DNA of 43,405 bases from a virus (Duplodnaviria; Heunggongvirae; Uroviricota; Caudoviricetes): IMG/VR virus record IMGVR_UViG_2563366824_000007; one strand, written 5' to 3'. Each line of letters opens with the position of its first letter. Within the stretch, counting starts at the first letter, position 1. A model generated the notes under the pieces. The model had not been told where the DNA came from, made no database searches, and saw only the letters and a list, made by a program, of their open reading frames with translations. Made by a program: the position numbers and the translations under genes. Below are positions 1,009-43,405 of this stretch, piece by piece.

Positions 1009-1083
1009 GTCCTCTTAGTTAAATGGATATAACGAGCCCCTCCTAAGGGCTAATTGCAGGTTCGATTCCTGCAGGGGACACCA
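1009..1083 (+). tRNA. argW: tRNA-Arg (anticodon CCU)
   Basis: 75-nt sequence GTCCTCTTAGTTAAATGG...GGTTCGATTCCTGCAGGGGACACCA; CCT anticodon in the CTCCTAA loop, T-arm GGTTCGATTCC, encoded CCA end. Confidence 0.92.
1069..1083. repeat. attL core, 15-bp CTGCAGGGGACACCA (3' end of argW)
   Basis: Exact 15-mer repeated at 41702..41716; integrase gene lies immediately adjacent. Confidence 0.8.
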
Positions 1084-2914: not shown

Positions 2915-3828
2915 AAATTTCTTTAGTCGTTCCGGTCTTTAACGAAGAGGCCACGATACCTATTTTTTATAAAACCGTGCGCGAATTTGAAGGGCTTCAG
3001 CAGCATGAAGTCGAGATAGTCTTCATAAACGATGGCAGCAAAGACGCTACAGAATCAATTATCAACGAGCTTGCTGTTGCCGACCCGCTTGTGGTTTCGC
3101 TGTCGTTCACACGTAACTTCGGCAAAGAACCTGCCCTGTTCGCAGGTCTGGACCATGCTACCGGGGAGGCAATTATCCCGATTGACGTTGATCTGCAAGA
3201 CCCTATCGAAGTTATTCCTCACTTGATAGAGAAATGGCAGGCCGGTGCAGATATGGTTCTGGCTAAACGCTCTGACCGCTCCACTGACAGCAGGCTGAAG
3301 CGTAAATCTGCTGAGTGGTTCTATAAACTTCATAACAAAATCAGCACCCCTCAGATAGAAGAGAATGTTGGCGACTTCCGGCTCATGTCTCGCGAAGTAG
3401 TGGAAAACATTAAGCTCATGCCAGAACGAAACCTGTTTATGAAGGGTGTGCTGAGCTGGGTTGGTGGTCGAACCGAAGTCGTAGAATATGCGCGAGCAGA
3501 ACGCGTTGCAGGAAGCACAAAGTTCAATGGATGGAAGCTCTGGAACTTGGCGCTGGAAGGGATCACTAGCTTCTCAACATTCCCGCTGCGCATGTGGACC
3601 TATATTGGGTTATTTATTGCATGTATATCATTTACATACGGTTCATGGATGATAATTGATAAATTAATTTTTGGTAATAATGTACCTGGATACCCTTCAA
3701 TTCTTGTATCAATATTATTTCTTGGCGGCATCCAGTTAATTGGTATTGGAGTGCTAGGTGAGTACATAGGGCGTATCTACGTTGAGGTTAAGCAGCGTCC
3801 AAAGTATATATTAAAGGATAATAAATAA
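2911..3828 (+). CDS. gtrB: GtrB-family bactoprenol glucosyltransferase (GT2)
   Basis: 305 aa with GT2-like N-terminal region (VVPVFNEE ... DGSKD ... DVDLQDP) and two C-terminal TM helices; stop overlaps the gtrC ATG. Confidence 0.9.
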
Positions 3829-5285
3829 TGATTTTCAAAAAACAAATTAAATTTATATTCGTAATTTTATTATTTGCGTCATTATTTATGCTATATCACT
3901 TTGCCAGCTTAAACATATTCCCACCAAATACAGATGCGGCAACAGTGCTTTTGCTTGGTAAGGATATGTCAGAAGGTAATTACTTACTTCATGGATGGAT
4001 GCTATCCACGGTTCCTTTTTACTTTACAGAAGTATCTTTTTATGCGATCGCCTCTATATTATTTGGCTACAGCAGTGAGCTTGCATATATAATACCACCA
4101 GCGATGTATGCTACTGTGATATTTTTGATATACAGGCTGTCTACAAATAAATCATTAGCATTAGCGCTAATTATATTCTACTTTGTTTTTCCTGCTGACA
4201 TGGCTGTTACATCAATGCTTTCAGCGTGCATTCACATGGGTACATACATATTTATCATTGGATGCTTAATATTTACAGAAAAGTATATTAAAACAGAAAA
4301 AATATTATTTGTATACTTTTCAACCATACTGTCCTCTATGGCTATTTTTAGCGATAATATCTCAGTCTATATATACGTTGCACCGCTAACATTAGCAGCA
4401 ATGTTTTTGTTGCACAAGGAAAGAAAAAAGAAATACCTTATTATAATGGCTGGATTGTTTTCTTCATATTTAATTTCCAAGGCGATCGGTTTTTTGTTTT
4501 TAAACCTTGGAAGCTTTACATTGCCAGGACTAACAGATGTAAAGATTGTTGAGTATGACAATATTTTAGTTAATATAAATACCGCAGTAAGTGGAACTTT
4601 ATTGTTTTTTAATGCAGACATATTTGGTGAGCAGATAACACCATCACTGCATCTATTATCTAAAGCAATACGCTTTGCTGGTGTTGTTGCATTAATTTAC
4701 TTCACTTTCAGAAATCTTTTTAAAAACAGAAGCGTTATTGATATATGTTTGTCATTGTCTATTTTAATCATGACATCTGCTTATATTGGTAGTAACCTCC
4801 CAAGAAATATATGGACAATAAGATACCTTGTTCCCGTCTTCATTATGGCAGTAATTCTTTTGTCAAGATCTAAATTTAATAAAAAAAGCATTATTTTATT
4901 AATAGCTTTTTTGGGCATCATATCAGGAATTAAAACAATAAATATTAATGGCTCCACTGATAATAGATACAATCAGATATCATGTATTAGAGAAAAAATC
5001 AACGAGCACAAAGTGAATTATGGATATGCCCCTTTTGCATTTACCAACTCTGTTGGTGTGAATGGAGACATAAAAATAGCAAATATACTTTTTGATAACA
5101 ATGAAATTAAAAGAGACAACTGGCTTACAAATAGCGAATGGTATAACAAAGGAAATAATTTCTTTATTCTTGAGAATAAAGAACAATTGAATATTGTGAA
5201 GAAAATTTATGGTCAACCTGAAGATATTGAAAGTGTGTGTGATGTGATTTTTGTCAAATACAGAAACCACATTTACGTCAAATAA
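3828..5285 (+). CDS. GtrC-type serotype-specific O-antigen glucosyltransferase (specificity unknown)
   Basis: 485-aa polytopic membrane protein in the third position of the gtr operon; AT-rich relative to flanking genes; translationally coupled to gtrB. Confidence 0.65.
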   Translation: MIFKKQIKFIFVILLFASLFMLYHFASLNIFPPNTDAATVLLLGKDMSEGNYLLHGWMLSTVPFYFTEVSFYAIASILFGYSSELAYIIPPAMYATVIFLIYRLSTNKSLALALIIFYFVFPADMAVTSMLSACIHMGTYIFIIGCLIFTEKYIKTEKILFVYFSTILSSMAIFSDNISVYIYVAPLTLAAMFLLHKERKKKYLIIMAGLFSSYLISKAIGFLFLNLGSFTLPGLTDVKIVEYDNILVNINTAVSGTLLFFNADIFGEQITPSLHLLSKAIRFAGVVALIYFTFRNLFKNRSVIDICLSLSILIMTSAYIGSNLPRNIWTIRYLVPVFIMAVILLSRSKFNKKSIILLIAFLGIISGIKTININGSTDNRYNQISCIREKINEHKVNYGYAPFAFTNSVGVNGDIKIANILFDNNEIKRDNWLTNSEWYNKGNNFFILENKEQLNIVKKIYGQPEDIESVCDVIFVKYRNHIYVK

Positions 5286-17096: not shown

Positions 17097-18913
<1,817 letters not shown>

Positions 18914-28097: not shown

Positions 28098-28312
28098 TAT
28101 TCACCTCTCGCAGCCTTGCGCTTATCTTCTTTAATCTTGAAATAAAGGTTTGTCAGGTACGTCAGCAGGCCAAATACCAGGCTACCCAGCACACCTATTG
28201 CTGCCCACTGTGAGGGCGTGACTTTATCGAGCAGCTGTAAAAACCAGTAGCCAGCACTGCCTGCGGAGGTGCCGTAGGCAATGCCCGTTGTTAACTTATC
28301 CATAGATTTCAT
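28097..28312 (-). CDS. Pinholin (phage-21 S-like class II holin)
   Basis: 71 aa [26 protein letters not shown]... with two TM domains, dual-start motif (Met1/Met4) and C-terminal KAARGE. Confidence 0.85.
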
Positions 28313-28500
28313 AGCCTCACCTCCGCAAATAACGGATGGTGTACACGGTTCGGAACGAAGAGGAAAGGTATAGAAGTTACATTAGCGTAAGGCTTGAACA
28401 TCTATTCAAAAAGAAAAACGCCAGCGATTATTCTGGCGTAGCTGAAAGCATCATACAATTATCAAATACGAAAATTACAAAATCATTAAAACGCATCACG

Positions 28501-29232: not shown

Positions 29233-29583
29233 ATTATCCACCTGATATCATTGGGGTTACACCAGGTAAGTATAGGTGGAAAATCAATATTCGCCAGTTC
29301 AACAATAAGGAAAATTTCATTGCATCACAAGTATAAAATTATGTATTTAACTCACAAAGACAAATTATTAAACCAATCTGTTATATTATATATAGCTGCG
29401 TGGAATCATAATATTATATATTTTGACTGGCATGTTTACCAACTTTAAGTTGCATCTCAATTGTTTCTTCAGCGTAAACAGAGTTTTTATACAAACTGAC
29501 ACTCTGGGTATCATAGTGTAGTTTTTACGATTGTAAATATCCTGCATGCAGGAACTCATCCTTTTGGATGATATCGCATACAA

Positions 29584-36129: not shown

Positions 36130-36734
36130 GCGTTAGTTTCTCCACAGTCACGACACGCCACGGCGCCCGGAGCTGCACACTCGCGGGCGTCATTACTTTC
36201 TGAAATGCAAAAGATTTTGTAGACCAGTGCTGCATGCTCCTGCAGCTTCGAAATTGAGAGATACAGCTCGTCGTTAATTGCTGTCTTCTCATGCGGTTCC
36301 ACCACACCGTCTTCGATTGCCGAACGAATCTGTCTGGAATAACTGCCAATCTGTTCAATGACTTCCAGCAGGCGCTGGTTAATATCCGCGTTGTCCACAT
36401 CCTCGACGTCAGGAAGAGACACAAAGACGCCATTTGCAGACTGCGCCACAGCGTCAGCAATGAAGTGAGTTCCACCAGCACGTTGCAAAATCATTGCCCA
36501 TCCCAGCGGGAAAATCTGATCGCCATCGGCACGAAGGCGGTTAAATAATGCGTTTTCTGTTACATCCAGCCAGTCAGCTGCTTCAGCGTAACCACCCGGC
36601 AACGCTGCGATAGTTTTTCTGACAGCTTTCACGTACCACTCAGGCTGTTTTTCTACTTTCCAGTGATGCTTACCCACGGTTAGCCTCATCGTTCTGTGGT
36701 TTCTGTTAATCGATTTATCCATTAGATTTTTCAT
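36126..36734 (-). CDS. Early regulatory-region protein at the cII/YdaT position (function uncertain)
   Basis: Track ORF 36126..36791 starts at GTG; in-frame ATGs at 36734 and 36722; no clear ribosome-binding site; follows the cro-like gene. Confidence 0.45.
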
Positions 36735-36915
36735 AAAGCTCAGGTTTAAATGGCAACCGTCCGCAAGTTCTATATGCAGCTTCTGCTGCACGTCCTTTTG
36801 GAATTAACTGGCCCGGACGGTTTCGCCACTGATAAACGGCTTCAGTTGTTATGCCGAAAAAAGCAGCAACTTTCTCAATACTGCCGAAGTAGCTTTCGAT
36901 ATCGTCAGTTGTCAT
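36715..36915 (-). CDS. Cro-like HTH regulator (YdaS/Cro family)
   Basis: 66 aa with HTH (VAAFFGITTEAVYQWRNR); GGAGGG ribosome-binding site; divergent from cI. Confidence 0.75.
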   Translation of the reverse strand: MTTDDIESYFGSIEKVAAFFGITTEAVYQWRNRPGQLIPKGRAAEAAYRTCGRLPFKPELYEKSNG

Positions 36916-36925
36916 ACGCCCTCCA

Positions 36926-36990
36926 AACTAAGTTTTATTAGATGCTAATTACAAATCTATCTTTGGTCAATAAAAACTAAGATTACTTAG
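36926..36990. promoter_or_regulatory. OR-like operator/promoter region between cro and cI
   Basis: Palindromes ATTAGatgCTAAT (36937..36949) and CTAAGattaCTTAG (36977..36990) plus an AACTAAG half-site; minus-strand TTGACC -17- TAGCAT promoter overlaps the first palindrome. Confidence 0.6.
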
Positions 36991-37012
36991 CAATTCAAGA
37001 AATGGTGCTCCT

Positions 37013-37639
37013 ATGGAAACGGTTGGTCAGCGTATAAAAGCTCTGAGAAGAGTTACCGGAACGTCCCAGAAAGAATTGGGTAAATTTTGTGGAGTAAGCG
37101 ACGTTGCTGTGGGGTACTGGGAGAAAGACATCAATACTCCTGGTGGGGAGGCACTTTCGAAATTAGCGAAGTTCTTCAATACGTCAATAGATTACATTCT
37201 TTATGGTGCTGAGTTTGAAGGCAAACTCGTCACAAACATGCGCAGAGTTCCTGTAATATCGTGGGTTCAGGCTGGGCAGTTTACTGAGTGCAGGGCAGCA
37301 GAAGTGTTTAGTGAAGTGGACAAGTGGGTAGATACATCATTAAAGATTGGTGATAACTCATTTGCATTAGAGGTTAAAGGTGACTCCATGACTAACCCTA
37401 ATGGCCTCCCAACAATACCAGAAGGCGCAACAGTGATTGTAGATCCAGATGCAGAACCTCGTCATGGAAAAATAGTCATCGCTCGACTTGATGGAACAAA
37501 CGAAGCTACAGTAAAAAAATTAGTCATCGATGGCCCTCAAAAGTTTTTAGTGCCATTAAATCCTCGGTATCCCAACATCCCTATCAATGGTAATTGCCTT
37601 ATCATTGGTGTAGTCAAAGGAGTTCAATACGAACTCTAA
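37013..37639 (+). CDS. CI-like repressor (HTH plus S24 LexA-type autopeptidase domain)
   Basis: 208 aa; N-terminal HTH (QKELGKFCGVSDVAVGYWE), C-terminal peptidase region with GDSM serine motif and a downstream Lys. Confidence 0.88.
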   Translation: METVGQRIKALRRVTGTSQKELGKFCGVSDVAVGYWEKDINTPGGEALSKLAKFFNTSIDYILYGAEFEGKLVTNMRRVPVISWVQAGQFTECRAAEVFSEVDKWVDTSLKIGDNSFALEVKGDSMTNPNGLPTIPEGATVIVDPDAEPRHGKIVIARLDGTNEATVKKLVIDGPQKFLVPLNPRYPNIPINGNCLIIGVVKGVQYEL

Positions 37640-37653
37640 GACCTCTCTTCTCT

Positions 37654-37721
37654 AACTAAGGCACCGAACTAAGAAAAGTTTGGTGTTTTCTCTTGCCATA
37701 ATAACTAAGTTAAGTTAGATT
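37654..37721 (+). promoter_or_regulatory. OL/PL-like operator-promoter downstream of cI
   Basis: Three further AACTAAG repeats (37654, 37667, 37703) and a rightward TTGCCA -17- TAGATT promoter (37693..37721) with half-sites in the spacer. Confidence 0.5.
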
Positions 37722-37845
37722 TTATATCAAAGATAACGAACAGGCAGGACGCCCACGAAGTAGCCGCCTGGGGCATATGACGTCCAGGATGATTCGTTGA
37801 GTCATGTTGTGCCACCAGGCACTCATGTTAAAGCAGGTGTATGAA

Positions 37846-38121
37846 ATGAAAGTCCAGATTTTAAACAATAACTGTGAAGTCGTTTGGTCATACGACATAG
37901 CCGCCCCTGTAGATCAGAGCGGCGATAGCTGGACCAATGGGAAACATCAGATTATGGCTGGAGTTGTGTTCTCTTTACGCCGTGCTTTGGAACAGGCTGA
38001 AGTATTTCCATCAGACCCTGAATGGAAATGGCCTTTTTCTATTTGTCCAAATTCGGAGAGCACATTTCAGAAAATTGGTCAGAAAGTCGCACTCGAAGAG
38101 CATCAGCCAACTGTTTCCTGA
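37846..38121 (+). CDS. Hypothetical protein, first ORF downstream of cI
   Basis: 91-aa ORF from ATG 37846 with AGGTG ribosome-binding site (track start 37804 lacks one); AT-rich; no recognised family. Confidence 0.5.
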   Translation: MKVQILNNNCEVVWSYDIAAPVDQSGDSWTNGKHQIMAGVVFSLRRALEQAEVFPSDPEWKWPFSICPNSESTFQKIGQKVALEEHQPTVS

Positions 38122-38284
38122 TTTTTTCAGGTAACTCGTCGGCATCGCAGAAACAACAACGCTCGATCATGTTGAAAGCCGATTCGTAGAACTGTTTCTG
38201 CTGAGTGTCGCTGAGACAGGAAAAGAGCGACGTTACGATGATTTTATTAATTGCATTATCAAGTTCTTTTTCATCAAAAGTCAT
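38039..38284 (-). CDS. Hypothetical acidic protein, convergent with and overlapping the previous ORF
   Basis: 81-aa ORF with ATG and AAGGA ribosome-binding site; 3' end overlaps the plus-strand ORF by 83 nt; Cys pair CCFC; AT-rich. Confidence 0.45.
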   Translation of the reverse strand: MTFDEKELDNAINKIIVTSLFSCLSDTQQKQFYESAFNMIERCCFCDADELPEKIRKQLADALRVRLSDQFSEMCSPNLDK

Positions 38285-38539
38285 TTGATTTTCCTTTTAT
38301 GTATACGGGCTTAAAAGGATACCACCGAGCCTGAAGTGGTGAAAAGACAGGCACATAACAGCTAAGTATTTTCAACCAAAGAGAATCCTTAGCGTTGTGG
38401 TGAATGCGGCTCAGCGCACGCGGGTTAAGGTTGAGGCTGACAGTCGACCTTCTGTGGATACCCACCCGCCTGGTGTGCAACCTTCGCCAGGCACCGGGAG
38501 GCACCCGGCACCACAACTTTATGCTGTGTGTAGTCTTGG

Positions 38540-38584
38540 CGGTACCAGCTTATACCCTTGCTTCCGGCTGGTACCGTCCTTTTT
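38540..38584 (+). terminator. Intrinsic terminator in the early leader (tL1-like)
   Basis: 10-bp GC-rich stem CGGTACCAGC / GCTGGTACCG with 17-nt loop, followed by CC-TTTTT. Confidence 0.6.
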
Positions 38585-38673
38585 ACAAAACAGAGAAGAG
38601 CATCACCGGACGACGGGCTCATAACCCAATCCATCCGGGCGGCAGTCACCGCAGGTGTTCTTCTCTGTTTTGT
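38585..38673 (+). other. Long perfect inverted repeat (15-19 bp stem, about 50-nt spacer) upstream of yfdP
   Basis: ACAAAACAGAGAAGA at 38585..38599 pairs perfectly with TCTTCTCTGTTTTGT at 38659..38673; the stem extends with G-U pairs. Confidence 0.6.
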
Positions 38674-38721
38674 GGAGAAACTAACCGACCTTGCAGGGTC
38701 GATATGATGAGGAGCAGCAAA

Positions 38722-39084
38722 ATGGCTAGCGAACGCAGTACTGATGTGCAGGCATTTATCGGGGAGCTGGACGGCGGCGTATTTGAAACCAAAATCGGCG
38801 CAGTTCTCAGTGAAGTCGCTTCCGGTGTGATGAACACGAAAACCAAAGGTAAGGTCTCGCTCAACCTGGAAATCGAACCGTTTGATGAGAACCGAGTGAA
38901 AATCAAACACAAACTCTCATATGTTCGCCCGACTAACCGCGGGAAAATTTCCGAAGAAGACACCACCGAAACGCCGATGTATGTCAATCGCGGTGGTCGC
39001 CTGACTATTCTGCAGGAAGACCAGGGACAGTTACTGACTCTTGCCGGTGAACCTGACGGAAAACTCCGCGCAGCAGGTCGTTAA
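38722..39084 (+). CDS. yfdP: YfdP-like early protein
   Basis: 120 aa from ATG 38722 with GAGGAG ribosome-binding site; the track ORF's 5' extension from 38404 is Arg/Cys-rich and covers the structured leader. Confidence 0.7.
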   Translation: MASERSTDVQAFIGELDGGVFETKIGAVLSEVASGVMNTKTKGKVSLNLEIEPFDENRVKIKHKLSYVRPTNRGKISEEDTTETPMYVNRGGRLTILQEDQGQLLTLAGEPDGKLRAAGR

Positions 39085-39149
39085 TATCGTTTTTAATTAA
39101 CTGATTATTTATCTCATCACTGAATATCTTTATATAGTGAGGACTTATT

Positions 39150-39974
39150 ATGTCTCAGAACTTAGACGCAACCGCAATTAATCAAATCCATGCCCTTATT
39201 TCTGCTCAGGGTGTTAATGAAATTATCAGTAATATTGGTGCCGATGCTGTGGCATTGCCTGAGAATTTCCGCATTCATGATCTGGAAAAATTTAATTTAA
39301 ATCGCTTCCGTTTCCGTGGTGCGCTTTCCACTGCCAGCATCGATGACTTTACCCGTTATTCTAAAGATCTTGCAGATGAAGGCACCCGCTGCTTTATCGA
39401 TGCTGATAATATGCGTGCCGTCAGTGTGCTTAACCTGGGTACTATTGATGAACCAGGTCACGCAGATAACACCGCCACACTCAAACTGAAAAAGACAGCA
39501 CCGTTCTCTGCTCTGTTGTCTGTTAACGGCGAGCGTAACTCCCAGAAGTCACTGGCAGAATGGATTGAAGACTGGGCCGACTATCTTGTGGGCTTTGATG
39601 CTAATGGTGACGCTATTCAGGCAACAAAAGCGGCTGCGGCTGTCCGTAAAATCACGATTGAAGCAAACCAGACCGCTGATTTTGAAGATAATGACTTCAG
39701 CGGCAAACGCTCCCTGATGGAGTCTGTCGAAGCGAAGACCAAAGACATTATGCCAGTGGCATTTGAATTTAAATGCGTTCCGTTTGAAGGTCTGAAAGAA
39801 CGTCCGTTTAAATTACGCCTCAGTATTATCACTGGCGATCGTCCTGTACTGGTTCTGCGCATTATTCAGCTGGAGGCGGTGCAGGAAGAAATGGCTAAAG
39901 AATTTCGTGATCTGCTTGTTGAGAAATTCAAGGACAGCAAAGTAGAAACCTTTATTGGTACTTTCACCGCCTGA
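39150..39974 (+). CDS. yfdQ: YfdQ-like protein (DUF2303)
   Basis: 274 aa, the size of K-12 YfdQ; GTGAGGA ribosome-binding site. Confidence 0.75.
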
Positions 39975-40101
39975 TTTCATTACTGCAAATGCCCCTGCGG
40001 GGGCATTTATGGAAACGTAATTTACTCAATAATCGCCGGATGGTGAGGGATTCTTTTTACCAGAATTCAGCGCGGTGCAGCGCATATACGTGGAGAACAA
40101 A

Positions 40102-40638
40102 ATGTCATTTATTAAAACTTTTTCCGGGAAGCATTTTTATTATGACAGGATAAATAAAGACGACATCGATATTAACGATATCGCGGTTTCCCTTTCAAAT
40201 ATCTGTCGCTTTGCCGGTCATCTTTCGCACTTCTACAGCGTCGCCCAACATGCGGTTCTTTGCAGCCAGCTGGTGCCGCAGGAATTTGCTTTTGAAGCGT
40301 TAATGCATGATGCAACAGAAGCGTATTGCCAGGACATTCCCGCACCACTGAAACGCCTTCTTCCTGACTATAAACAAATGGAAGAAAAAATAGACGCCGT
40401 AATCCGTGAGAAATACGGGTTACCCCCAGTTATGAGTACGCCCGTGAAATATGCCGATCTCATCATGCTGGCAACCGAACGCCGCGATCTCGGGCTTGAT
40501 GATGGCTCTTTCTGGCCTGTACTGGAAGGTATCCCGGCAACAGAGATGTTCAACGTGATTCCACTGGCACCGGGCCATGCCTACGGGATGTTTATGGAAC
40601 GCTTTAACGAGTTATCGGAGTTACGCAAATGCGCATGA
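40102..40638 (+). CDS. yfdR: HD-domain 5'-deoxynucleotidase YfdR-like
   Basis: 178 aa from ATG 40102; HD-type metal-binding motif (H ... HD ... D); track start is GTG 40075. Confidence 0.75.
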   Translation: MSFIKTFSGKHFYYDRINKDDIDINDIAVSLSNICRFAGHLSHFYSVAQHAVLCSQLVPQEFAFEALMHDATEAYCQDIPAPLKRLLPDYKQMEEKIDAVIREKYGLPPVMSTPVKYADLIMLATERRDLGLDDGSFWPVLEGIPATEMFNVIPLAPGHAYGMFMERFNELSELRKCA

Positions 40639-40991
40639 ATGTTTTCGAAATGGAAGGGTTTCTTCGTGGGAGATGTGTACCGCGAGATCTGAAAGTAAAT
40701 GAAACAGATGCTGAATACCTAGTGCGTAAATTCGATGCGCTTGAAGCTAAATGTGCAGCACAGGAAAACAAAGTAATACCAGTGTCAACTGAACTGCCAC
40801 CAGCAAATGAAAGTGTTTTGTTATTCGATGCTAACGGAGAAGGCTGGCTAATTGGCTGGCGTTCTCTCTGGTACACCTGGGGACAAAAAGAAACCGGAGA
40901 ATGGCAGTGGACATTTCAGGTCGGGGACCTTGAAAACGTCAATATAACTCACTGGGCAGTAATGCCAAAAGCACCGGAGGCTGGAGCATAA
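40629..40991 (+). CDS. yfdS: YfdS-like protein
   Basis: 120 aa; overlaps the yfdR stop; Trp-rich C-terminus. Confidence 0.7.
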   Translation: MRMNVFEMEGFLRGRCVPRDLKVNETDAEYLVRKFDALEAKCAAQENKVIPVSTELPPANESVLLFDANGEGWLIGWRSLWYTWGQKETGEWQWTFQVGDLENVNITHWAVMPKAPEAGA

Positions 40992-41296
40992 TGACCACTT
41001 TTACCGACAAAGAACTGATTAAAGAAATTAAAGAGCGTATCAGCAGCCTTGACGTGCGAGACGATATTGAGCGCCGTGCTTATGAAATCGCACTCCTATC
41101 TCTGGAAGTAGAACCAGATGAACGCGAAGCTTATGAATTATTCATGGAAAAGCGTTTCGGTGACTTAGTAGATCGTCGGAGAGCAAAAAACGGCGATAAC
41201 GAATACATGGCATGGGATATGACTCTCGGTTGGATCGTCTGGCAGCAACGAGCTGGTATCCATTTTTCAACAATGTCACAGCAAGAGGTGAAATAA
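40991..41296 (+). CDS. yfdT: YfdT-like protein
   Basis: 101 aa; start overlaps the yfdS stop. Confidence 0.7.
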   Translation: MTTFTDKELIKEIKERISSLDVRDDIERRAYEIALLSLEVEPDEREAYELFMEKRFGDLVDRRRAKNGDNEYMAWDMTLGWIVWQQRAGIHFSTMSQQEVK

Positions 41297-41352
41297 TGGA
41301 GCCATACAGCCTCACACTCGATGAGGCCTGTCAGTTTCTTAAAATATCCTGA
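41296..41352 (+). pseudogene. Truncated AlpA/Xis-like excisionase remnant (ypdJ-like)
   Basis: 18-codon ORF MEPYSLTLDEACQFLKIS* resembling the N-terminus of AlpA-family excisionases, cut short by a stop. Confidence 0.45.
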
Positions 41353-41392
41353 TCTACCATCGCCGTCATAGAGCGTATTTTTATTACCTGAT

Positions 41393-41408
41393 TTGCAGGT
41401 TCGATTCC
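41393..41408 (+). repeat. Orphan 16-bp copy of the argW T-arm segment (TTGCAGGTTCGATTCC)
   Basis: Exact match to tRNA positions 1045..1060, located about 300 bp inside attR just upstream of torI. Confidence 0.6.
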
Positions 41409-41427
41409 CTATTCGGAGATAGCACTC

Positions 41428-41628
41428 ATGCAACACGAACTACAGCCTGATTCACTGGTTGATTTGAAATTCATCATGGCTGATACTGGCTTTGGTAAAA
41501 CCTTCATCTATGACCGGATTAAGTCCGGCGACCTGCCAAAAGCCAAAGTTATCCACGGGCGAGCAAGATGGTTATATCGTGACCATTGTGAATTCAAAAA
41601 TAAGCTCTTAAGCCGCGCCAATGGGTAA
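41428..41628 (+). CDS. torI: Excisionase / recombination directionality factor TorI
   Basis: 66 aa MQHELQPDSLVDLKFIMADTGFGKTFIYDRIKSGDLPKAKVIHGRARWLYRDHCEFKNKLLSRANG (winged-helix Xis-like); GGAG ribosome-binding site; adjacent to attR. Confidence 0.85.
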   Translation: MQHELQPDSLVDLKFIMADTGFGKTFIYDRIKSGDLPKAKVIHGRARWLYRDHCEFKNKLLSRANG

Positions 41629-41701
41629 AATAGCGGGTAAAATATTTCTCACATCTAAAAAACACCATTCCAATCAATCCCCTGCTGCTTCAAGTAGATG
41701 T

Positions 41702-41716
41702 CTGCAGGGGACACCA
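41702..41716. repeat. attR core, 15-bp CTGCAGGGGACACCA
   Basis: Exact direct repeat of the argW 3' end (1069..1083); flanking bases differ. Confidence 0.8.
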
Positions 41717-42157
41717 GATACCCTTCAAACCAAATCTACCTTCACCCCGTAAAAGATGGGTTTAGCAGCGCACTTGCCCTATATCTACTCATTTTTACTG
41801 CAACAGGTTGAAATCTCAGCACTGTCAGAAAGCGCTGATGACTAAACAGCCCTGGGCCGGGAGATGTAACCATCATACAGAATCCTGATAGCGAAATATG
41901 GCGTGACTCGATACTTCACTCTGCAATGCATTCCTTGATGAATTCGCAGGCCCGTGATACTCGGGACAGGTCGCTGAATGACGACAATGTCCTGGAAATC
42001 AGCGAACCGCGTATCCGGAGTACATTTGAGCGACTGTACCAGAACATGAATGAGGCGTTTGGATTAGGTGATTATTAGTTGGGCTAAGCATTTTTGTATT
42101 ATTATTTTCCGGTTGAGGGATATGGAGATATCGACAACAACCGGAAAAAGTTTACGT

Positions 42158-43405
42158 CTATATTGCTGAAGGTACAGGCGTTTCCATAACTATTTGCTCG
42201 CGTTTTTTACTCAAGAAGAAAATGCCAAATAGCAACATCAGGCAGACAATACCCGAAATTGCGAAGAAAACTGTCTGGTAGCCTGCGTGGTCAAAGAGTA
42301 TCCCAGTCGGCGTTGAAAGCAGCACAATCCCAAGCGAACTGGCAATTTGAAAACCAATCAGAAAGATCGTCGACGACAGGCGCTTATCAAAGTTTGCCAC
42401 GCTGTATTTGAAGACGGATATGACACAAAGTGGAACCTCAATGGCATGTAACAGCTTCACTAATGAAATAATCCAGGGGTTAACGAACAACGCGCAGGAA
42501 AGGATACGCAACGCCATAATCACAACACCGATAAGTAATGCATTTTTTGGCCCTACCCGATTCACAAAGAAAGGAATAATCGCCATGCACAGCGCTTCGA
42601 GTACCACCTGGAATGAGTTGAGATAACCATACAGGCGCGTTCCTACATCGTGTGATTCGAATAAACCTGCATAAAAGACAGGAAAGAGTTGTTGATCAAA
42701 AATGTTATAGAAAGACCACGTCCCCACAATAAATATGACGAAAACCCAGAAGTTTCGATCCTTGAAAACTGCGATAAAATCCTCTTTTTTTACCCCTCCC
42801 GCATCCGCCGCTACACACTGGTGACCCTTATCTTTAAAACGCATGTTGATCATCATAAATACAGCGCCAAATAGCGAGACCAGCCAGAAGTTGATATGGG
42901 GACTGATACTAAAAAATATGCCGGCAAAGAACGCGCCAATAGCATAGCCAAAAGATCCCCAGGCGCGCGCTGTTCCATATTCGAAATGAAAATTTCGCGC
43001 CATTTTTTCAGTGAAGCTGTCAAGCAAACCACATCCCGCCAGATACCCCAGGCCAAAAAAGAGCGCCCCCAGAATTAGACCTACAGAAAAATTGCTTTGC
43101 AGTAACGGTTCATAAACGTAAATCATAAACGGTCCGGTCAAGACCAGAATGAAACTCATACACCAGATGAGCGGTTTCTTCAGACCGAGTTTATCCTGAA
43201 CGATGCCGTAGAACATCATAAATAGAATGCTGGTAAACTGGTTGACCGAATAAAGTGTACCTAATTCCGTCCCTGTTAATCCTAGATGTCCTTTCAGCCA
43301 AATAGCGTATAACGACCACCACAGCGACCAGGAAATAAAAAAGAGAAATGAGTAACTGGATGCAAAACGATAGTACGCATTTCTGAATGGAATATTCAGT
43401 GCCAT
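42158..43405 (-). CDS. cscB: Sucrose permease (LacY-family MFS oligosaccharide:H+ symporter)
   Basis: 415-aa 12-TM protein starting MALNIPFRNAYYRFASSYSFLFF...; ATG at the window end; csc genes are known to sit at the argW locus in some E. coli. Confidence 0.75.
   Translation of the reverse strand: MALNIPFRNAYYRFASSYSFLFFISWSLWWSLYAIWLKGHLGLTGTELGTLYSVNQFTSILFMMFYGIVQDKLGLKKPLIWCMSFILVLTGPFMIYVYEPLLQSNFSVGLILGALFFGLGYLAGCGLLDSFTEKMARNFHFEYGTARAWGSFGYAIGAFFAGIFFSISPHINFWLVSLFGAVFMMINMRFKDKGHQCVAADAGGVKKEDFIAVFKDRNFWVFVIFIVGTWSFYNIFDQQLFPVFYAGLFESHDVGTRLYGYLNSFQVVLEALCMAIIPFFVNRVGPKNALLIGVVIMALRILSCALFVNPWIISLVKLLHAIEVPLCVISVFKYSVANFDKRLSSTIFLIGFQIASSLGIVLLSTPTGILFDHAGYQTVFFAISGIVCLMLLFGIFFLSKKREQIVMETPVPSAI

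Follow-up and report, generated by a model that had tools for sequence, protein, structure and literature searches.

A predicted P22-type OL/PL region with its own operator sequence, and a conserved structured RNA at the predicted transcript start, downstream of a prophage cI gene

The non-coding DNA that follows the cI repressor gene at positions 37640-37730 of the window (the whole 43 405-nt stretch of viral DNA analysed here) very probably bounds a P22-type immunity module, with an OL/PL region, on its 3' side, packing three functions into ~90 bp. The promoter within it is most likely an ordinary P22/lambda-style repressible early promoter accompanied by two putative repressor sites, and what the sequence predicts is a new operator specificity inside an already known type of switch. 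The predicted transcript opens with a conserved three-helix RNA. The features are listed in Table 1.

Table 1. Features of the immunity region, the predicted PL transcript and other elements named in the text (window coordinates)
Feature	Position	Strand	Remarks
tRNA-Arg(CCT) gene	1009-1083	+	Left end of the window
cro	36715-36915	-	66 aa; ORF list; Pfam P22_Cro, 4.4e-11
OR region	36926-36992		Three 18-bp sites, 67 bp
OR1 (putative)	36926-36943		AACTAAGTTTTATTAGAT; cro-proximal
OR2 (putative)	36950-36967		TACAAATCTATCTTTGGT; weak, middle site
OR3 (putative)	36975-36992		AACTAAGATTACTTAGCA; cI-proximal
PR (predicted)	-35 36970-36965; -10 36947-36942	leftward	Promoter scan
cI repressor gene	37013-37639	+	208 aa; ORF list, Pfam
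First AACTAAG copy	37654-37660	+	Not conserved
cI intrinsic terminator (predicted)	37658-37692	+	13-bp hairpin 37658-37670/37677-37689, then U-rich UUUUCUC
OL2 candidate operator	37667-37684	+	AACTAAG-AAAA-GTTTGGT; consensus match 11/14
PL promoter (predicted)	37693-37721	+	-35 TTGCCA 37693-37698; 17-bp spacer; -10 TAGATT 37716-37721
OL1 candidate operator	37703-37720	+	AACTAAG-TTAA-GTTAGAT; consensus match 12/14
Conserved three-helix RNA	37735-37798	+	64 nt; 5' end of predicted PL transcript
P1 closing helix	37735-37740/37793-37798	+	Compensatory changes
P2 small hairpin	37743-37753	+	GGC-AGGAC-GCC; invariant; pairing putative
P3 hairpin	37767-37771/37784-37788	+	Compensatory changes
Small ORF	37846-38118	+	Directly past the RNA element; convergent with the next, ~80 bp overlap
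Small ORF	38039-38284	-	Convergent with the preceding ORF

In the window cro and cI are divergent, and the next gene leftward of cro encodes a CP76/CII-type regulator. The cI product joins an HTH_3 domain (Pfam, 1.1e-10) to a Peptidase_S24 domain (9.2e-28) of the LexA-like, self-cleaving type. PL lies just past the cI stop codon on the same strand and is directed away from cI. The cro-cI-PL module is carried by 519 of the 5426 complete E. coli genomes as well as by phages vB_EcoM-689R6, vB_EcoS-569R4 and Kati, and the same module is found in mEp460_4F5 (95% DNA identity) and LLS (77%). The operator specificity of LLS was stated as unknown in a 2025 study of that phage (PMC12315714), and we found no description of the AACTAAG operator type, or of the RNA element, in the literature searched.

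The initial annotation had placed three AACTAAG copies immediately after the cI stop, at 37654, 37667 and 37703, and all three are there on the + strand (37654-37660, 37667-37673 and 37703-37709). Two further copies lie in the cro-cI gap, at 36926 and 36975, and the sixth copy of the 43 kb is inside the tRNA-Arg(CCT) gene on its - strand. Were the copies merely chance or low-complexity repeats in AT-rich DNA, with a fortuitous promoter match, there would be no OL/PL at all. The bare count is compatible with this, the six copies comparing with an expectation of 3.8 and 15 shuffled sequences out of 100 reaching that number, and the promoter scan returned four sites in the real region against 4.0 in shuffled sequence, making the hexamers alone weak evidence; moreover, the 37654 copy is not conserved. 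The distribution of the copies speaks differently, since five of the six fall within 784 bp around cI (Poisson P ~1e-8). The longer pattern ACTAAG-N5-TTAG (at most one mismatch) likewise has six matches, five of them around cI, a number reached in none of 100 shuffles. Only four 18-mers in 43 kb match AACTAAG-N4-CTTAGTT at 11 or more of 14 positions (36926, 36975, 37667 and 37703), all in non-coding DNA flanking cI, where a first-order Markov model expects 1.35 per 43 kb. As this consensus was partly derived from the very sites scored, the independent support for the operators is their conservation across species. The sites and promoter are kept across genera whose cI proteins are 63-90% identical while the flanking DNA diverges, and their register is identical to that of the annotated OL1/PL of P22, which leaves the chance explanation scarcely credible.

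The phylogenetic footprint of stacked flanks is the main evidence for OL/PL. We stacked on the -10 hexamer 16 aligned loci, comprising the window, mEp460, LLS and 13 genome loci. The 15 orthologous loci encode cI proteins 63-97% identical to that of the window, with a graded series from 90% (Enterobacter) to 63-65% (Providencia, Proteus) supplied by scanning each species through a single genome. Every one of the 16 loci, which range from E. coli to Proteus and Providencia, retains both promoter hexamers, the 17 bp between them and the spacer operator, with the consensus TTGAC(C/A)-17-TAGATT; the exceptions are TTGCCA in the window and TAGCCT in one locus. At OL1, ACTAAGTTAAGTTAGATT recurs without change in mEp460, LLS, Enterobacter, Kosakonia, Kluyvera and Rahnella, and beyond the -10 many loci, LLS among them, have unrelated DNA. 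A search of IMG/VR with cI returned 80 loci whose repressor is identical in all, which makes them uninformative as a footprint; in each of the 80 the same PL precedes the RNA element.

The rightward TTGCCA-17-TAGATT promoter of the initial annotation was recovered by the promoter scan with a score of 9/12. Its predicted start lies near 37728 (+/-2), the mapped P22 PL start being 7 nt past the -10. That the spacer carries the half-sites, as had also been suggested, holds for the 37703 copy; the copies at 37654 and 37667 are upstream of the -35. The 7-mer half-site itself gives way, as the unit, to an 18-bp two-fold symmetric site, AACTAAG-N4-CTTAGTT, to which cI dimers would bind. OL1 runs from spacer position 5 to position 17 and on through five bases of the -10. 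In the mechanism we propose, PL would be a sigma-70 promoter firing in the direction of cI and driving the early-left operon, and a cI dimer on OL1 would exclude RNA polymerase because it would sit over the spacer and most of the -10. To judge from its domain family, the S24 domain of cI would bring about self-cleavage of the repressor upon SOS induction, releasing both PL and PR.

The layout agrees closely with that of phage P22, whose record annotates OL1-3, PL, its transcript start and nutL directly 3' of c2, with OR1-3 on the opposite side. Both follow the order cro, OR, repressor, OL/PL and early-left operon, cI and C2 share 47% identity over 205 residues (E 2e-65), and Cro is a P22_Cro family member. 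In both phages the operators are 18 bp long with a 7-4-7 layout and a TAAG core. With a slash marking the start of the -10, P22 PL reads TTGACC-ATTT-AATTAAG-AAGT-CT/TAAATT and that of the window TTGCCA-TAAT-AACTAAG-TTAA-GT/TAGATT; in both phages OL1 (AATTAAG-AAGT-CTTAAAT in P22) begins 4 nt past the -35 and its right half forms the -10. OL2 starts 35 bp from OL1 in P22, by our side-by-side reading, and 36 bp in the window. The three OR sites, spaced 23-25 bp, occupy 66 bp in P22 (18+5+18+7+18) and 67 bp in the window, and OL and OR lie ~750 bp apart in the window, as in P22. The OL/PL reading of the initial annotation is therefore upheld both by conservation over the 16 loci and by the annotated c2-OL-PL arrangement of P22. 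The two phages part company in the sequence recognized. The P22 half-site is ATTTAAG/AnTTAAG and that of the window AACTAAG, and the recognition helices (SNVAISQWE in P22, SDVAVGYWE in the window) differ at four of nine positions; the predicted immunity specificity of the window thus differs from that of P22. The window further differs from P22 in having no supported third OL site, in an OL2 merged with a terminator hairpin, and in the absence of gene 24 (the N analogue) and nutL, with a structured RNA following the start instead.

The likeness to lambda, whose repression is cooperative and involves looping, is more general: two operator clusters flank the repressor gene, operators overlap PL, and the repressor is of the LexA-like self-cleaving kind. 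OL and OR are however ~2.3 kb apart in lambda compared to ~750 bp here, the lambda operators are 17 bp rather than 18 bp long and unrelated in sequence, and the window has no rex genes between cI and OL, nor a supported third OL site.

Between cro and cI, the OR layout (18+6+18+7+18) is kept in 16/16 loci. In each of them OR3 comes close to a perfect palindrome, AACTAAG-ATnA-CTTAGTT; the cro-proximal site reads nnCTAAG-N4-nTTAGAT across loci, and the middle site, overlapping the PR -35, has the weaker form AACCAAT-N4-CTTTGGT. A search for PRM gave as its best -10 candidate a TAAGAT within OR3, with no matching -35. These three sites, of the same family as OL1 and OL2, would control PR and PRM.

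The second candidate operator, OL2, ends 8 bp upstream of the PL -35 and starts 36 bp upstream of OL1. In enteric phages this site sits within the intrinsic terminator of cI, at which the cI transcript is predicted to end (hairpin 37658-37689 plus U-run). A simple terminator scan missed the structure, and the SfV record carries an annotated terminator at the same position. The versions from the window, mEp460 and LLS fold alike, at -15.1, -15.6 and -14.0 kcal/mol (z -3.15, -5.9 and -4.0), and LLS keeps the stem by compensatory changes (CACCGAAC/GTTTGGTG becoming CATCAAAC/GTTTGATG). The 37667 copy of AACTAAG is in our reading both part of the predicted terminator stem/loop and the left half of candidate OL2.

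Such a double role raises the question whether the 37667 copy is kept solely as part of the terminator stem, with OL1 as sole operator and PL a single-site promoter devoid of cooperativity. OL2 has a poor right half (4/7), and in enteric orthologues, which keep the left half, the site always coincides with a hairpin that is itself kept by compensatory changes. Yersinia proxima, Providencia and Proteus argue against this: here the OL2 position is a well-formed, free-standing palindrome outside any hairpin, 33-34 bp from OL1, and P22 likewise has an OL2, at 35 bp in the side-by-side reading. In LLS the left half AACTAAG is preserved where the stem changes, and the right half TTTGGT is a variant that recurs in OR2. 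We consider a single-operator PL unlikely. With OL2 retained as a second candidate site, cooperative repressor binding is plausible. OL1 and OL2 are separated by 33-36 bp and the OR sites by 24-25 bp, a difference of about one helical turn; the OL spacing, being the OR spacing plus roughly one turn, would keep the same helical phase, and from this spacing OL2 would probably help to fill OL1 cooperatively.

The remaining copy, at 37654, is probably not an operator. It reads AACCAAA in the 95%-identical mEp460, is absent in loci L212 and L215 and is shortened to CTAAG in LLS and L211; its would-be right half, CGAACTA, matches the consensus at 3/7 positions, and the site would overlap OL2. It was rejected on these grounds and would be a lineage-specific by-product outside the switch. 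A third OL site was sought both here and 24 bp upstream of OL1, and neither position was supported. The operator cluster of three copies envisaged initially is hence reduced to two supported sites, OL1 and OL2, with the 37654 copy, absent in mEp460 and several orthologues, falling away.

The + strand genes past PL run from an orf33-like gene through yfdP-, yfdQ- and yfdR-like genes to an excisionase gene (xis, 41428-41628). PL fits as the promoter of this whole early-left operon, since the promoter scan found no other + strand promoter-like site from 37700 to 43405 and the operon ends with the excisionase. No product of the operon matches an antiterminator family in PHROGs or Pfam. PL might instead be a real but constitutive, 'moron'-type promoter for the orf33-like gene, its repeats bound only by Cro or some other protein, for instance the CP76/CII-like regulator. 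The genes immediately downstream would suit such a role in that the two small ORFs of Table 1 fall into PHROG families with no assigned function (phrog_3195 and phrog_3311) and are separated from yfdP by a non-coding stretch of 430 nt. It is nonetheless very unlikely, given that the same 18-bp family makes up the three cro-cI sites, which are classical repressor and Cro targets, that an operator over the -10 has the geometry of repression, that the scan gave no other + strand promoter that could serve yfdP through xis, and that the homologous P22 sites are annotated as C2-binding.

Several other features of the window were observed along the way. A - strand terminator-like hairpin (38340-38321) lies upstream of the - strand small ORF. 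The GC-rich non-coding stretch upstream of the yfdP-like gene (~430 nt, 38290-38720, + strand, especially 38372-38587) shows conservation in SfV and, in part, in LLS; its Rfam match to STnc100 stays below threshold (42.4 bits, gathering score 47, E 1.4e-7), a weak match at 38525-38579 is DicF-like, and the stretch may be an sRNA or a processing region. Mid-prophage, at 17402-17524 (+), there is a full-length Rfam match (150 bits) to the Hfq-binding sRNA IsrC. The K-12 isrC gene adjoins flu (Ag43) in CP4-44, and the prophage may for that reason carry similar cargo. The tRNA gene at the left end of the window and, at the right end beyond the excisionase, a long membrane-permease-like ORF (42158-43405, - strand, read by eye only) complete the picture, and suggest that the window is a whole prophage at an argW-type site, like KplE1/CPS-53 of K-12.

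The structured RNA at the head of the predicted PL transcript emerges from comparative analysis only, the single-sequence fold of the element not being significant (z -1.04). Our alignment holds 56 distinct versions and is almost gap-free. Over these 56 sequences 95.5% of cells are paired, against 70% in shuffled alignments and 22-45% in slid controls; 11 of the 14 pairs are changed on both sides, and the covariation score is 0.64 compared to 0.18 after shuffling. Compensatory changes are abundant in P1 and P3, and the P2 pairing stays putative because its sequence is invariant. The loops are nearly invariant as well (GCCCACGAAGUAGCC, GGCAUAYGAA and GGAUGA). A covariance model built from the 56 elements has a single hit in the window (87.4 bits, E 8.6e-30), and Rfam, at gathering as well as permissive thresholds, gave no match for either the operator region or the element, the sub-threshold one to STnc100 being the sole match in the vicinity.

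The element is widespread and modular, being coupled to many immunity regions in N-less lambdoid prophages of the Enterobacterales. It was found in 1851 of 5426 complete E. coli genomes, where it is unannotated among the matches listed, including the e14 prophage of K-12 between ymfK (cohE) and ymfJ. Covariance hits lie just past cI homologues in Kluyvera, Kosakonia, Yersinia, Photorhabdus and Xenorhabdus, the element is also present in the terminal repeat (pre-early region) of T5-like Providencia phages, and in mEp237 the kil gene lies directly 3' of it. Homology of the window to SfV, SfII, SfIV, ST64B and phiNP starts abruptly at 37735, ~7 nt past the predicted start, and extends from the same position to phages of Yersinia, Pantoea, Klebsiella and Pectobacterium, all of these relatives being of other immunity types. 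SfV and e14 (ymfK/cohE - ymfJ) illustrate this well. Like the window they have a repressor, a terminator, a TTGACA promoter with repeats in its spacer, the same RNA element and an orf33/ymfJ-type gene, but their repressor and operator repeats (ATGTACC-type) are different, amounting to heteroimmunity, and homology begins only at the transcript start. Conversely, the same cI/OL/PL module occurs with unrelated leaders after the -10, and no element, in LLS (L002), L211, L213, L229 and L230; there is therefore a mosaic joint at the transcript start. In LLS, the DNA after the -10 (3455-4005) contains other GC-rich hairpins.

A sigma-70-like promoter lies within 60 nt upstream of 53% of distinct element instances, compared to 2% of random positions, and P1 most often begins 12-15 nt past the -10. 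The assignment of the element to the + strand rests on this promoter coupling, wobble-pair counts being undecided between the strands. It sits where N/nutL would be, in one copy per phage and with none downstream of PR. Intrinsic terminators are depleted on the transcribed strand in the 360 nt past the element (3/112 contexts against 14% of random stretches). An antiterminator followed at once by its terminator is for that reason unsupported.

A cis-acting antiterminator role is one hypothesis for the element, drawn by analogy with the put RNA of HK022. Both are ~65-70-nt structured RNAs near the PL transcript start of an N-less lambdoid phage, and by eye they share the short strings CGAAC..GGC and GGAUGA. 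However, put consists of two adjacent stem-loops without a closing helix (PMC9378689), whereas our element is a closing helix around two hairpins. Membership of the put family was rejected: the covariance model misses putL and putR, which we located by eye at about 28240-28320 (-) and 29450-29530 (+), and its best HK022 hit (E 1.5) lies elsewhere. A put-like role in cis is attractive because of the promoter coupling, the modular spread and the lack of an N-type protein in the PL operon; the absence of similarity to put and the depletion of downstream terminators do not favour it. PreS/LPR1, an sRNA of the lambda early-left operon that was also considered, is located elsewhere and is unrelated to the element.

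There is some likeness to the leaders of other lambdoid phages. By eye, those of lambda and P22 PL have CAGCAGGACGC in common with the element's 5' part, and the first ~15 nt of both transcripts (AUCAGCAGGACGC...) resemble its 5' part ACAGGCAGGACGCC, with a possible AGGAC-loop hairpin (in lambda at about 260-283 of L291, - strand). The covariance match of the P22 PL leader is insignificant (7.9 bits, E 1.9; best P22 hit, L290 524-592, - strand). The likeness may be a remnant of common ancestry.

For the immunity group to which this prophage belongs, carried by roughly a tenth of complete E. coli genomes, the analysis provides a candidate operator code, AACTAAG-N4-CTTAGTT, and a promoter map, and the code predicts which prophages are homo- and which hetero-immune. 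The design is compact, with a single stretch of DNA doubling as terminator stem and candidate operator. The RNA element is potentially more important than the operators, as a third of complete E. coli genomes contain it, laboratory K-12 among them, and it is unannotated among the matches listed. We tentatively propose, as a possibility less likely than not, that the first ~70 nt of the PL transcript are an undescribed RNA that replaces N/nutL and modifies RNA polymerase in cis, independently of protein. If true, it would constitute a second class of put-like processive antiterminator.
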